Below are positions 73 through 63,426 of a stretch of 64,000 nt of DNA, piece after piece (the first letter of the stretch is position 1; each line of letters opens with the position of its first letter). The notes below the pieces were generated by a model. It made no database searches. It was given only the letters and a program-made list of their open reading frames with translations, and was not told the origin of the DNA. Position numbers and translations under genes: made by a program. The DNA is from Thermofilaceae archaeon (GTDB lineage: Archaea; Thermoproteota; Thermoprotei; Thermofilales; Thermofilaceae). Where the stretch lies: positions 128,001-192,000 of the forward strand of contig JAWCCZ010000004.1 in the NCBI GenBank assembly GCA_038861545.1, in the 5' to 3' direction.

Positions 73-930
73 TCAGGGGTCGATGGGCAAAACATTAGCG
101 TCTATACACACCTTGTAAACACGCGGTGCGTACTCTGATACCTTTCGTGCGCCATGGATTATTACTCGCATGCCGCGTAGTGCTGCTTCATGCTCGAGTA
201 GGAAGTAAGCCTCTGTGAAGAGGTCGTTTTCAGGAGCCCAGTAGTAGAAGTGTACCATACCGCCCTCTGGCTTAAGGCACTGGAATGCACAGTCAAGGTA
301 CTCGTAAGCGCCTTTCGGAAGCGGCATAACAACCCTATCGCAGCATTTATACCAGCAGCTTGCTTTTAAGCGGACGTCGCCAAGCACTGGTATAACCTTA
401 TCCTCCAGCTTATTGAGCCTGACATTCTCCTGCATGTACCTAAAGGCCTCTGGATTGAGCTCTATCGCCACAACTTTCTCCACCAGGGGTTGTTTCCTAG
501 CGATCATTAAGGCATAGGGTCCAACACCCGCGAACATCACCATTACGAGCTCACCTGGCTTTACCTGTTTGGATATTCTAAGCCTCTCTGTCGCCTCCCT
601 TGGAGAAAAGTACACCTTAGTTATGTCCAGCTTTAACTTCACCCCGTGCTCTACGTGTATAACTTCTGTGCCCCCCTCGCCAGCGATTACCTCATATTCC
701 CTTAACCTAAAAGCTCCCTCCCTGCCCGAGGTTTTGGCTAAAACAAGTTTTACATTTCTATGAAGTTTCATTAATGTTTCCCCAACTATTCTCTTGACTG
801 TTTCAGGTGCCTCAGGGGAAAACTCAACCACGGCGATAGCCCTTTCTCTCGATCCTATAATATCGAAGCTCGATGGCACGTACTTAACGTCTTCGCATAA
901 AGTTTCAGCTAGGATTCTTTTCAAACTCAT
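73..930 (-). CDS. trm5: Trm5/Met-10+ family tRNA (guanine-37-N1) methyltransferase
   Basis: SFDIIG, HVEHGVKLKLDITKVYFSPR, SAM motif MFAGVGPY, ELNPEAF, DRVVMPLP. Confidence 0.85.
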   Translation of the reverse strand: MSLKRILAETLCEDVKYVPSSFDIIGSRERAIAVVEFSPEAPETVKRIVGETLMKLHRNVKLVLAKTSGREGAFRLREYEVIAGEGGTEVIHVEHGVKLKLDITKVYFSPREATERLRISKQVKPGELVMVMFAGVGPYALMIARKQPLVEKVVAIELNPEAFRYMQENVRLNKLEDKVIPVLGDVRLKASCWYKCCDRVVMPLPKGAYEYLDCAFQCLKPEGGMVHFYYWAPENDLFTEAYFLLEHEAALRGMRVIIHGARKVSEYAPRVYKVCIDANVLPIDP

Positions 931-981: not shown

Positions 982-2247
982 ATGAAAACGTCACGTATAC
1001 CCAGTTTCTATAAACTGAGTATTGATGAGCGTTTGAAGGCTGTCGCGGAGTTCGCGGGGCTTACAGGCGAGGAAATTCAGCTTTTAAAACAATTCGGTAA
1101 TCTTGATTCCAGCATTGCCGATAGGATGATCGAGAACGTGATAGGAGCAATGAGCTACCCGCTAGCTGTTGCTGTGAACTTCTTGATCAACGGTAAGGAC
1201 TACGTCGTCCCGATGGTTATAGAGGAAGCTAGCGTAGTGGCAGCGGCAAGTAATGCGGCTCGTTTAATGCGCAGGGATCAAGGGATTAAATCCATGGCTA
1301 CAGCACCCGTAATGATTGGACAGATTCAGGTCATTGGTTTGAAGGATCCCTGGTACAAGCGCATGGAGGTTCTCGAGCGCAAAGATGAAATTATACAGAA
1401 AGCGAATGAAGCGGACCCTGTTCTAGTGAAGTACGGTGGTGGAGCTCGTGATGTTGAAGCAAGAGTTGCTGAAGGCCCTACCGGTCCGATGCTTATCGTG
1501 CATTTACTAGTTGACGTGTGCGACGCAATGGGGGCAAATGCGGTTAACACTATGGCGGAAAGGGTGACTCCACTAATTGAGGGAATCACCGGGGGTAAAG
1601 CTCATCTTAGGATTATTTCCAATTTGGCTGATCGAAGACTTGTGCGTTCTTGGGTCAAGGTTTACAAGGAGGACCTTGGTGGTGAAAACATTGTCGATGC
1701 AATAGTCGATGCATGGGCTTTTGCTGCAGCCGACCCGTACCGCGCAGCAACGCATAACAAGGGCATAATGAACGGCGTGATAGCGGTGGCGTTAGCTACC
1801 GCTCAAGATCACAGAGCGATCGAGGCGGGGGCACATGCCTATGCAGCTAGAACCGGAAAGTACTTGCCGCTCACTGTTTGGGAAAGGGACCCGGAGGGTA
1901 ACCTGGTTGGCTCTCTTGAGATGCCAATGGCTGTAGGTATAATAGGGGGCGCAACCAAGGTACACCCGGTAGCCAGAATAGCTTTAAAGATTCTCGGAGT
2001 AAAAACAGCCAACGAACTCGCTGAAGTTATGGGAGCTGTTGGCTTAGCGCAGAACTTCGCAGCTCTTCGAGCGCTGGCGACTGAAGGTATTCAGAGAGGA
2101 CACATGGAGCTGCATGCACGTAACCTAGCTATAATGGCTGGCGCTACTGGAGAACTAGTCGACAAAATCGCTGAAGCTATGGTTAAAGAGGGGAACATTC
2201 GTTTCGATAGGGCTAAGGAACTCCTAGAGGAATTCTCTAAAAAGTGA
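982..2247 (+). CDS. mvaA: Class II (bacterial-type) HMG-CoA reductase
   Basis: MIENVIG, EEASVVAAAS, DAMGAN, THNKGIMNG, GIQRGHM motifs. Confidence 0.93.
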   Translation: MKTSRIPSFYKLSIDERLKAVAEFAGLTGEEIQLLKQFGNLDSSIADRMIENVIGAMSYPLAVAVNFLINGKDYVVPMVIEEASVVAAASNAARLMRRDQGIKSMATAPVMIGQIQVIGLKDPWYKRMEVLERKDEIIQKANEADPVLVKYGGGARDVEARVAEGPTGPMLIVHLLVDVCDAMGANAVNTMAERVTPLIEGITGGKAHLRIISNLADRRLVRSWVKVYKEDLGGENIVDAIVDAWAFAAADPYRAATHNKGIMNGVIAVALATAQDHRAIEAGAHAYAARTGKYLPLTVWERDPEGNLVGSLEMPMAVGIIGGATKVHPVARIALKILGVKTANELAEVMGAVGLAQNFAALRALATEGIQRGHMELHARNLAIMAGATGELVDKIAEAMVKEGNIRFDRAKELLEEFSKK

Positions 2248-2294
2248 GCAGTCAAAAACTTAAACCGGCTTGGGTGAGAGGAGGGGGGCGAGGG

Positions 2295-3765
2295 ATGAGC
2301 TTTCCCTAAGGAGGAAAAAGGTTACGAGCTAGGTATTACTGCAGGCAAGCGAGAGGATTTTTCAGAATGGTTCACACAGGTGTTAACAAAGGCTGAGTTA
2401 GTTGATACGAGGTACGGGGTTCAAGGTTTCGTCGTTCATAAACCTTGGGCGATGCGAATCATACGTGAAATATATCGAATGTTTGAAGAAGAGCTTGAAA
2501 AAAGCGGCCACGAGCCAGTCCTCTTTCCACTTCTTATACCAGAGGAATATTTTGAGAGAGAGAAAGAGCATGTTAAAGGATTTAAACCCGAGGTTTTCTG
2601 GGTTACCGAGGGGGGCGATGAAAAGCTTGAACGTAGGCTCGCATTGAGACCTACCTCAGAAACGGCTTTTTACTCGATGTACTCTCTTTGGATACAAGGC
2701 TGGAGAGACTTACCGTTGAAGTTGTACCAGAGCGTATGCGTTTATAGGTACGAGAAAACCACTAGGCCTTTCATAAGGGGTAGAGAATTTCTATGGATCG
2801 AGGCTCACTGCGCTTTCGCGACTCGAGACGAAGCCTTAAATCAAGTAAAAGAGGATATGGAAAACCTGAGGAAAGTTGTGTGGGATAGGCTTGCTATACC
2901 GTTCATTTTCCTAAGGAGACCACCTTGGGATAAATTTGCCGGTGCTGAAGATACTTACGCGGCTGATACTCTCATGCCGGATGGCAGGGTACTGCAGATA
3001 GCGTCTACGCATGATCTGGGTAAGCGATTCTCTGAGGCTTTTAACATAGCTTTCGTAGATAAAGACGGTCAGTGGAAGCAAGTGTACCAGACCTGCTACG
3101 GTCCCGGCGTTTGGAGGATAATAGCGGCCTTAATAGCTATACACGGCGACAACAAAGGATTGGTACTACCGTTCGATGTAGCCCCGGTGCAGGTAGTAAT
3201 AATCCCCATATTCTACAGCGATGATGAGAAGGAGAAAGTGGTAACCAAGTGCAGGTTAACTAGAGAAAAACTAGCTGGAGCCGGTTACAGGGTGCTGGTT
3301 GACTTTAGAGAAAAAACCCCTGGCTGGAAATTCAATGATTGGGAGCTTAAAGGTGTACCTCTCAGGATTGAGATTGGTAAAAAAGAAGTTGAAAGCGGCT
3401 CTTTAACCGTGTTCCGAAGAGATATTCGAAAAAGGGTGCCCGTTAAAGAGGAAGAGCTTCTCCAGAAGATAGAAGAACTAAGGTATTTGATCCTAGAAGA
3501 ATTAAAGAAAAGAGCTAGAGAATTCTTTAACTCTAGGATAGTCAATACAACAGATAGAGAGAACCTGCTTCGAGCTGTAAGGAACGGTATGGTTGCAGTA
3601 GCTCCGTTCTGCGGGCGAGAAGAATGCGCTGAGGACATGAGGACTCAGGTGGAGGGTCTTAGAGTCAGAGGTACCGAGCTAGACCATGTAGAGGGAGATT
3701 ACGGAAAATGTATCTGGTGCGGCTCTCCAGCTAGGCAGCAGGTTTACATTGCCAGAGCATACTAA
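2295..3765 (+). CDS. proS: Prolyl-tRNA synthetase (archaeal/eukaryal type); real N-terminus lies upstream of the annotated GTG 2380 and appears to need a +1 shift at 2301-2309
   Basis: LRPTSET, FIRGREFLWIEAH, QIASTHDLG, C-terminal ARAY. The conserved DFSEWFTQV is in frame upstream of 2380, but the only ATG (2295) is in another frame: ATG AGC TTT CCC TAA. Confidence 0.93.
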
Positions 3766-23223: not shown

Positions 23224-23393
23224 AGCTACACCCCCAGCTATGCTAGAAAAGTTCTCCGGCTCTTTAACCGGATATGCTAGCGGGGATAATATCGTTCACC
23301 GAGCATGTGCTAAATTCACGATATATAAATTTTTACTATTCAACCCTGGGTGTAAAGAAAACTTTAAAGAAGTTAACCCCCTACCGCCAAACT

Positions 23394-26461: not shown

Positions 26462-27871
26462 TCTCCAGGTAGTTTCTCCCCCTCGATCATGCAACCTTAT
26501 ACCAAGCTTCATTAACTGCTCCCTAATCCAATCAGCAAACATGTAATCTCCAGCAAACCTTAACTTTTTCCTGATCTCGATAACCAGCTCGATTAATTTC
26601 TCAACAGGTATCTGTGGACTTTCAGCGAAGCACCTGTCTAATACACCTAGCACTCTGTTAAATTCTTCGAATAAGGTATAAGTTTTCAACGCCACAACGA
26701 CCTCTATTTGGTTTCTCTCAAGACTGGAGAAAACCAGACTGGAGAGTTCATACACATAGCTGAAAGCCTTGCTTGTGTTAAAATCGTCCTGCATTGCCGC
26801 ATGAAAGCCAGCCCTAATCTTGAGCAACCTAGCTAGTTCCTGTTTTCCAGAAGCACTTAACTTGAAATCATAATCCTCTTTCCTTAAAGCGTCGCGGAGG
26901 GACTGAACAGCGTTGACTAACCTCTCATAGTTCTTTTGTGCTTGGTGCAACGTATCTTCAGAGAAATCGACTATACTCCTATAATGAACTGTAGCTAACC
27001 AAAGCCTAACAATTTCCGGTTCCCATTTCGTGAAAACTTCTTTAAGAGTAACTATGTTCCCTAAGCTTTTAGACATCTTCTCCCCTTTTACGTTAAGCAT
27101 TCCTGTGTGTAACCAATACCTGACCCATGGTCTACGGTTAAACGCCGCCTCGCTTTGAGCTCTCTCGTTTTCGTGATGCGGAAATACGAGGTCGCTGCCT
27201 CCACCGTGTATGTCAAAAGATTCTCCTAAGTATAGACTTGACATCGCGCTGCATTCTATATGCCACCCTGGTCTACCAGGACCCCATGGACTTTCCCACC
27301 ACGGCTCATTGGGTTTCGCCGCTTTCCAAAGCGCAAAATCGTAAGGGTTCCTCTTCTCCTTGGCAAATTCTTGCTCCTGTCCCCATTCCTCCTTTAACAG
27401 CTTTCCACTTAGTTTCCCATAATCATCATAACAGTCAACATTGAAGTAAACGCTGCCGCTCGGCGCTACATAGGCATAACCCTTCTCGATAAGTGTACTA
27501 ACGAAGTTTATAATCTCGGATATATGTTCAGTTACTCGTGGATGAATATCGACTTTTATTTTAAGTTTTGATAAAGCTTCCAAGTAATCTTTTGTGTAGT
27601 AATCAGCTATCTCCCTCCAATCCCTGCCTTCATCCCTAGACCGACGAATAATTTTATCGTCTATATCCGTGATATTTTGGGTATGAAATACATCGAAACC
27701 TAACAATTTTAAGTATCGTTTCACTACATCGAAAGCAACATACGTGCGGGCGTGTCCAAGATGCGTAAAGTCATAAACAGTGGGACCGCAGACATACATT
27801 GAAACACTGTCAGGTTTAACCGGTTCGAAAGGCTCAATTTTTTTGCTCAAAGTATTATAAATCCGTAACAC
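26453..27871 (-). CDS. cysS: Cysteinyl-tRNA synthetase
   Basis: CGPTVYD, HLGH, GWHIECS, KMSKS. Confidence 0.96.
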
Positions 27872-27941
27872 AAAGCTCTGCCACCAGCCGTCACGGATTC
27901 TAGCTATTTAAATTTCTTACTATTCATTACATTACAAGCGG

Positions 27942-62322: not shown

Positions 62323-63426
62323 TTAGAAACTCCACCTGGGAAAAAACTTTACCTGCTCTTTCTTTTCTTCTCCAGCTTTTTCCACCTTCTGCACGGGAAG
62401 CTTTTTACCTGAGACTTCGCTAAAAGCTGCTCGAAGCTCCTCTTTAGTGGGTGGCGGTTTTAATCCCTCCGCCCTTGTTCGGTGCCCCAATGCCAGCCTC
62501 AACCCTTCTATCGCATCCTCCTCAATAACTTCGTACCTCCCGTTCAGTGCTGCTAGAGCCCTAGCAACTTTTACAGCTACGATATCCGGCCTATAACCAT
62601 CAACTTCTAACCTTGCACAAACTTTTGAAATTAAATCTACTACCGAGTCGCTAACCTTTATTTTAGGAAGAAGTTCCTTCGCAATGGCTATTCTGGCTTT
62701 TATCTCTTCTTCTGCGGGCACCCACTTACTGATAAACAACTGAGGCTCGGATTCCAGCTCTAAATTCCTTTTTACTATTTCCATCCTCAACTTAGGGTCG
62801 TGTACAGTCTCTAGTTTTACACTTATAGCAAATCTGTCTAAGAGCTGAGGTCTAAGCTCGCCCTCTTCCGGATTCATTGTTCCTATCAGTATGAATCTCG
62901 CAGGATGCTTAAGAGATATCCCTTCCCTTTCCACGACGTTCCAACCAAACGCGGCTGAATCGAGGATCGAGTCTACTACGTGATCTGGGAGCAAATTAAC
63001 CTCATCGACATAAAGGATCTGTCTATTAGCCCTGCCAAGTAGACCTGGTTCGAAGACTAACCTACCTTCCCTAAGGGTTCTCTCAATGTTTATTGTACCC
63101 AAAACCATGTCCTCTGTAGCGCCTATCGGTAATTCAACTATCGACATCGGTACTTCGCTGATAAGTAGTTTCTCTCCGTGTTCCCATTTTGACCTGCATA
63201 AGTCACACATACCCTCAGGTGACTCGGGATCACAGTTGAATGGGCAACCTTTTACCACTTTTATAAGTGGTAAAAGGTTGGCGAAGCTTCTGACTATACT
63301 GGATTTACCTGTGCCCTTGGGACCCATAATTAATAAACCCCCAATTGATGGATCAACGGCTAAGACAAGAAGCGCCGTCTTTAGGTCATCCACTCCAACA
63401 TAAGCTGGGAAGGGTAGTAATCGCAC
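62323..63426 (-). CDS. ChlI-like (Mg/Co chelatase) AAA+ ATPase
   Basis: GPKGTGKS, CPFNCDP, YVDEVNLL, NPEEGELRPQLLDRF. Confidence 0.9.
   Translation of the reverse strand: MRLLPFPAYVGVDDLKTALLVLAVDPSIGGLLIMGPKGTGKSSIVRSFANLLPLIKVVKGCPFNCDPESPEGMCDLCRSKWEHGEKLLISEVPMSIVELPIGATEDMVLGTINIERTLREGRLVFEPGLLGRANRQILYVDEVNLLPDHVVDSILDSAAFGWNVVEREGISLKHPARFILIGTMNPEEGELRPQLLDRFAISVKLETVHDPKLRMEIVKRNLELESEPQLFISKWVPAEEEIKARIAIAKELLPKIKVSDSVVDLISKVCARLEVDGYRPDIVAVKVARALAALNGRYEVIEEDAIEGLRLALGHRTRAEGLKPPPTKEELRAAFSEVSGKKLPVQKVEKAGEEKKEQVKFFPRWSF

Follow-up and report, generated by a model that had tools for sequence, protein, structure and literature searches.

How does this Thermofilaceae archaeon translate its prolyl-tRNA synthetase (ProRS)? 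In the 64,000-nucleotide stretch of DNA analyzed here (the window), the proS leader reads ATG 2295, AGC 2298, TTT 2301, CCC 2304 and TAA 2307, and the ProRS frame lies one base on from that ATG, with a TGA at 2296 and no ATG, GTG or TTG before GTG 2380. The initial annotation had read this as a gene broken just after its start (M-S-F-P-stop) that would yield 489 aa after a +1 shift, and the letters bear it out: the ORF of the annotated type, 2380 to 3765, encodes 461 aa, while the open ProRS frame from 2299 has 488 codons and the shifted product 489 residues (Table 1). A protein begun at GTG 2380 would lack both the F-S-E-W stretch, which aligns with solved archaeal ProRS structures, and the start of TIGR00408, the profile whose match above cut-off places the gene among archaeal/eukaryotic-type ProRS. 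Conversely, the +1-frame segment upstream aligns with solved ProRS from residue 17-20 and with TIGR00408 from residue 15. Only one proS was found in the genome (92% complete), and it is intact. A homopolymer error at the slip site, a concern raised at the outset, is not seen in Logan contigs from four runs in two studies, which span the site with 0 substitutions and 0 indels (one run may be the source of the assembly, and three make up the second study), and the first five proS codons are identical in a sister species. Database ProRS proteins of these archaea are shortened to 435-475 residues, a systematic annotation error for which the frameshift reading accounts. The gene at 982-2247 (+) scores above the TIGR00532 cut-off and encodes an HMG-CoA reductase of class II, the bacterial type.

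Table 1. Features of the window discussed in the text, in window coordinates.
Feature	Position	Strand	Basis
Trm5-family methyltransferase gene, neighbor of proS; no specific tie to the switch seen	73..930	-	profile search
TATA-like promoter box of proS; predicted 5' leader ~5 nt long	2260..2264	+	box-to-ATG spacing; start site inferred
GAGGGAU block, GGG before the start invariant; may pair with the anti-SD, 4 nt upstream of the slip codon	2290..2296	+	leader alignment; role inferred
Zero-frame mini-ORF, Met-Ser-Phe-Pro-stop	2295..2309	+	window letters; all 18 leaders stop early in the zero frame
proS open frame (archaeal/eukaryotic-type ProRS)	2299..3765	+	TIGR00408, 531 bits (cut-off 437)
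Predicted slip site of the P-site tRNA: UUU-C here, CUU-C in other genera	2301..2304	+	YTT-C conservation; tRNAs called
N-terminal segment in the +1 frame, overlooked by gene callers; includes the conserved E-L-G-I-T and F-S-E-W stretch	2302..2379	+	ProRS alignment; synonymous variation in the +1 frame
A-site Pro codon, putative sensor: CCC in this genome, CCT, CCG or CCA in relatives	2304..2306	+	leader comparison
ileS sister cassette: phase +1 mini-ORF whose codons 4 and 5 are Ile; frame open as far as ileS ATG 23223	23264..23299	-	leader scan
Candidate cassette over the cysS start: CUU then Cys codon, phase +1; weaker case	27855..27884	-	leader scan

The motif GGG-ATG-NGC-YTT-CCN heads 18 distinct proS leaders of Thermofilaceae, drawn from three genera and unplaced contigs and encoding ProRS 70-88% identical to the window protein, and the phase is +1 in 18/18, a count that overstates the case since the genomes are related. 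The linker from the motif to the conserved E/D-L-G measures 22, 25, 31 or 34 nt, always 1 mod 3, and every indel is a multiple of 3. Of the ATG-NNN-TTT-CCC-TAA that the initial annotation expected of a family alignment, the out-of-frame ATG and a YTT-CCN recur in every motif leader, and CCC-TAA is confined to one genus. Relatives with an uninterrupted frame, named there as grounds for rejecting the shift, make up the remaining family members, which have an ordinary in-frame proS start, but none occurs among the 18. Placed on the ProRS tree, the motif takes two changes; a single origin is also possible. Before E/D-L-G, 14 of the 18 leaders have no canonical in-frame start, and that of this genome has no in-frame CTG, ATH or ACG either; an in-frame GTG is kept in genus g7 and an in-frame ATG in one leader, so the shift is not obligatory everywhere. 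The in-frame proS leader of locus L027 (genome G002) carries an 11-base stretch, including the zero-frame stop, in common with genus g7, a possible remnant of a lost cassette.

At the predicted slip site, YTT-C is found in 18/18 leaders and in three proS genes of family f2 (21 in total), whose CUU-CCN mini-ORF lies ~60 nt upstream, in a phase to the gene that varies; in 3/3 of them the +1 frame is open across the leader and ends between 7 nt ahead of the start codon and 16 nt beyond it. In the slip site TT-CC never varies, and the base before it alternates between C and T, exchanging Leu and Phe, a pattern that argues for a P-site slip site rather than a peptide signal. Pro mini-ORFs before 148 other proS loci were not enriched for either phase (13 in +1, 13 in -1), and elsewhere in the class no placement at gene starts was seen for the exact 14-base motif, with 12-base matches in five genomes falling inside genes. 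In leaders outside this genus, the +1 frame is already the conserved one between YTT-C and the zero-frame stop (17 versus 4 synonymous codon differences and 54% versus 16% amino acid identity, +1 versus zero frame), which places the frame change at or before the Pro codon. The early zero-frame stop is itself kept, as TAA, TAG and TGA, above the expectation from synonymous resampling (chance product ~1e-7.5 over 11 lineages that are not independent), so the mini-ORF is probably translated. We conclude that expression of proS in this genome very probably depends on a ribosomal frameshift. Read-through of TGA 2296 was rejected, since that frame has no upstream start and another TGA at 2275.

From what is observed directly (the sequence, its conservation and phase, the coding constraint, the lack of another start and the match of codon to enzyme) we infer a slip, a slipping tRNA, a response to starvation and any anti-Shine-Dalgarno (anti-SD) contribution. 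The reading that we consider probable is a cognate-codon frameshift sensor that would raise synthetase output when charged tRNA is scarce, with an obligatory +1 shift in this proS; the prfB-like feedback tied to tRNA-Pro that the initial annotation proposed remains the best account, given a cognate codon at the pause position both here and before other synthetases. A ribosome initiating at ATG 2295 would come to hold tRNA-Phe (tRNA-Leu in relatives) on YUU in its P site with a Pro codon in its A site. With plentiful Pro-tRNA it would keep frame, stop at the next codon and release a tetrapeptide, whereas scarcity would leave the A site empty at codon 4, allowing the P-site tRNA to re-pair on UUC and enter the ProRS frame, so that more synthetase is made and a negative feedback loop on tRNA-Pro charging is closed. 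Both tRNA-Phe(GAA) and tRNA-Leu(GAG) were called in the genome; a move from UUU to UUC gives tRNA-Phe(GAA) better pairing, and for tRNA-Leu(GAG) a move from CUU to UUC replaces one G-U pair by another, which is also the case at prfB (PMC5009743). Sites known to shift +1 include CUU-U, CUU-AGG-C and UUU-Y, and such shifts are favored when the A site is slow to fill (PMC5009743). Two points weigh against a simple version of this model. Both frames place Pro in the A site in this genus, which blunts competition between them; with the +1 codon also Pro and the stop immediate, the share of shifted ribosomes would depend on how long the pause lasts, a form of kinetic sensing. Moreover, an essential enzyme would need a high basal shift rate, and the candidate stimulator is only putative.

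That candidate is the block before the start. The duplex of GAGGGAU with the 16S 3' end has a predicted energy of -8.2 kcal/mol, and across leaders the invariant GGGAU, 4 nt before the slip codon, pairs at -4.6 to -8.7 kcal/mol; GGUGG occupies the equivalent position in family f2 proS leaders. A prfB-like stimulation through pairing with the 16S tail is possible, with 4-6 nt between the SD-like block and the slip codon as against 3 nt in prfB. The longer purine-rich run at 2273-2288, which had been taken as the SD-like lead into ATG 2295, probably lies mostly upstream of the transcription start, to judge from the spacing of box to ATG, which is 29-37 nt where the motif is present and 23-27 nt in relatives that are leaderless.

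A first alternative, put forward in the initial annotation, is that tRNA-Pro on CCC slips at the UAA stop and so senses termination efficiency or m1G37. The tail gene of phage SPP1 has one such CCC-stop +1 site. Listeria phages use CCC-stop sites as well, a shift occurs at pheL (PMC5009743), and the genus of this archaeon has changed to CCC directly before TAA. Yet CCC-stop occurs in only 2/18 leaders, the stop elsewhere standing one or two codons beyond the Pro codon and the frame changing ahead of it; the conserved core is YUU-C plus any Pro codon, so the likely trigger is a shortage of Pro-tRNA rather than slow termination. Skipping of the zero-frame stop was discarded because the +1 frame is conserved before it. 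In E. coli, tRNA-Pro is less well charged when m1G37 is lost, and duplication of proS rescues the loss (PMC8643618), but here such a loss would act by lowering Pro-tRNA charging, that is, through the sensor that we favor. We consider this alternative unlikely, although in this genus a CCC-to-CCU slip of tRNA-Pro at the stop may offer a second route to the identical protein.

The link to Trm5, the m1G37 enzyme, fared no better. The neighboring Trm5-family gene lacks ~75 N-terminal profile positions and falls below all Trm5b, Taw22, Taw21 and Taw2 cut-offs; it does not track the proS cassette exactly, since it also adjoins motif-less proS and is not beside the f2 CUU-CCN proS genes. We rejected the linkage as clade synteny only; in genus g9 the gene is divergent from proS. 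ProC is absent from 8/8 motif genomes and present in 13/15 others of the family (glnA, as a control, was found in 7/8). All 8 motif genomes have two genes of the ornithine cyclodeaminase family (L201:2674-3708 and L202:2521-3522), one of them near the Pseudomonas-type enzyme 1u7h. Proline auxotrophy was set aside as support for the switch: its distribution amounts to about one evolutionary event, a protein close to true ornithine cyclodeaminase is present, and two of the f2 CUU-CCN genomes keep ProC.

Among 19 synthetases scanned in this genome, comparable cassettes were found for Pro, Ile, Val and Phe and possibly Cys. The pheS cassette, a start, one or two codons, then C-CAA and a Phe codon, is fused in phase -1 in 21/29 genomes (in this and the following tallies, main starts were hand-picked, the null was a mononucleotide shuffle and the genomes are related, so they are not formal probabilities), and it is apparently obligatory in five genomes with no in-frame start nearby. 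In the valS cassette, G-GAA, G-GGA or G-GGC precedes a Val codon, and the -1 frame fuses with the gene or ends at its start in 16/16. In this genome the two lie on the minus strand of contig C4 of G000, near 95661 (pheS) and near 203797 (valS). The valS cassette start varies among ATG, GTG and TTG, and a U-rich tract in several leaders may act as a terminator. The ileS cassettes, 23 in all, are of two types: with C-CAA then Ile (CAA-ATT), the -1 frame reaches the start in 12/12 and the +1 frame in 1/12 (with chances of 0.08-0.58 apiece in shuffles), and with two Ile codons (ATT-ATC), the +1 frame is fused or reaches the start in 11/11, including the one at 23299 in this window. The GTG of the ileS mini-ORF sits at the predicted transcription start and is replaced by GGG in two distant genomes; GGTGA could instead be the SD for an AUU start. 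At cysS, TT precedes the GTG start in nearly all genomes examined, giving a Cys codon in the -1 frame; an SD lies 9 nt upstream of the GTG, and mostly ATT stands before it in frame.

Although leader lengths and phases vary widely among these cassettes, the shifted frame remains open throughout, and it is difficult to account for this unless ribosomes travel in that frame. A shifted frame that ends at the start codon would fit termination-reinitiation, which has been shown in archaea (PMC6728339). A P-site slip may not apply throughout the family, re-pairing being poor in some cassettes (CAA to CCA, AUU to UUA). As part of the same reading, and with the same fair degree of confidence, we place proS in a Thermofilales family of cognate-codon switches with pheS, valS and ileS, each apparently fused or running to the start codon.

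These sister cassettes bear on a second alternative, a true +1 slip at YUU-CCN in fixed ratio, without sensing, due to proline being a slow acceptor. In its favor, UUU-CCN also marks a junction unlinked to proline supply, that of a chlI/chlD-like gene, where a +1 junction TTT-TTT-CCN, at 62338-62346 (-) in this window, is found in 9/10 split copies and the gene is fused in one genome. This junction could be a further sign of shifting here, or its six-T run could instead slip in transcription; known chlD shifts are -1. However, in five synthetases the codon at the pause position is that of the amino acid which the enzyme itself loads, and we regard a ratio without sensing as quite unlikely.

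Could ProRS do without a frameshift? It might start at a non-AUG codon (CTG in g9, ATT 2335 here), through re-initiation after the mini-ORF or with GGGAUG as an SD. CTG does follow the motif in 13/18 leaders, some relatives begin Met-Thr-Ser-Lys at a similar position, and re-initiation has the archaeal precedent cited above. But the place of that CTG is taken by CCT in this genome, by CTC in one g9 species and by CGA or CGG in g7, and ATT 2335, which the initial annotation had allowed for, has no SD at a usable distance; furthermore, the Glu-Leu codons upstream of it differ synonymously between two g1 species and are therefore translated. Such a start is very unlikely. More doubtful still is restoration of the frame in RNA by a bulge-helix-bulge (BHB) intron, polymerase slippage or editing. 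Removal of the linker would yield the Met-Ser-Glu-Leu-Gly start of relatives, and the tRNAs of this genome are intron-rich; against this, a full BHB was found in 0/18 leaders, relaxed matches lack shared boundaries, the linkers evolve as +1-frame code, and base runs of 2-3 are too short for polymerase slippage. Finally, an assembly error or pseudogene, conceivable in a metagenome assembly, is refuted by the independent runs, the conservation and the sole, intact proS, and we give it practically no weight.

Comparative evidence is thus strong that the proS leader is a real, conserved feature, and it points to sensor-type programmed frameshifting in a new form: the functional product would join a short zero-frame ORF to a +1 ORF without its own start, the shift site is conserved at the nucleotide level with P-site re-pairing possible, and the A-site signal matches the product (a Pro codon for ProRS, as cognate codons precede PheRS, ValRS and IleRS). 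With bacterial prfB, proS shares a short zero-frame ORF, an apparently obligatory +1 shift and a YUU codon in the P site, which in prfB is CUU and rarely UUU, and the prfB product relieves the A-site pause that triggers its shift (PMC5009743), as proposed here for ProRS. Unlike prfB, proS is archaeal and encodes a synthetase, presents a sense codon (CCN) in the A site rather than the UGA of CUU-UGA-C, would shift at codon 3 rather than 25 and has its candidate SD-like block at 4-6 nt rather than 3 nt. In yeast Ty1, ABP140 and EST3 (CUU-AGG-C) and influenza PA-X (UCC-UUU-CGU), a P-site CUU or UUU likewise slips before a slow sense codon; in these cases the A-site codon is a fixed rare one, whereas in proS it varies at the third base and specifies the amino acid that the product itself uses as substrate. 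The CCC-stop +1 sites of E. coli pheL and of the Listeria phage PSA, A118 and A500 tail genes resemble this proS genus in having CCC before the stop, but these sites extend a finished protein at its C terminus. In bacterial leader-peptide attenuation and T-boxes, a cognate codon in the 5' leader reports charging and sets synthetase output. The output of proS would be a change of frame, not a terminator or ribosome-binding-site hairpin, and its leaders show no conserved structure of that kind: the consensus fold is weak, with one pair showing two-sided change, hairpins between the shift site and downstream purines are no more stable than in synonymous shuffles (mean z +0.48), and long-range pairing with the Glu-Trp-Phe codons shows almost no covariation. 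That archaeal ribosomes shift is known from Saccharolobus fucA1 (-1), methanogen chlD (-1) and, likely, virus HSTV-2 (+1), none of which is a cellular +1 case or controls a synthetase. Among cellular frameshifts of archaea, a 2021 review counts a single one as proven, and it is a -1 shift (PMC8211752). Reviews and literature, mainly outside subscription papers, yielded neither a synthetase under frameshift control nor a +1 case encoded by an archaeal cell.

To our knowledge, the regulation of archaeal aminoacyl-tRNA synthetase genes is largely unknown, and hungry-codon shifting is known mostly from starvation experiments. If our reading is true, proS would supply a cellular +1 case in archaea, a synthetase under frameshift control and a natural use of hungry-codon shifting, and it predicts junction peptides, such as Ser-Phe-Pro-Lys-Glu in this genome and Ser-Leu-Leu in genus g9, as well as sister cassettes in cultured Thermofilum and Infirmifilum. 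More broadly, and with somewhat less confidence, the leaders compared here suggest that archaea may own a general system for matching synthetase supply to charging, spanning the Thermofilales, in which a mini-ORF, a slip codon and a cognate hungry codon would be read out in +1 or -1 by fusion or start coupling, with proS as its wholly shift-dependent form. Such a system would be the archaeal counterpart, in function, of bacterial T-boxes and attenuators.
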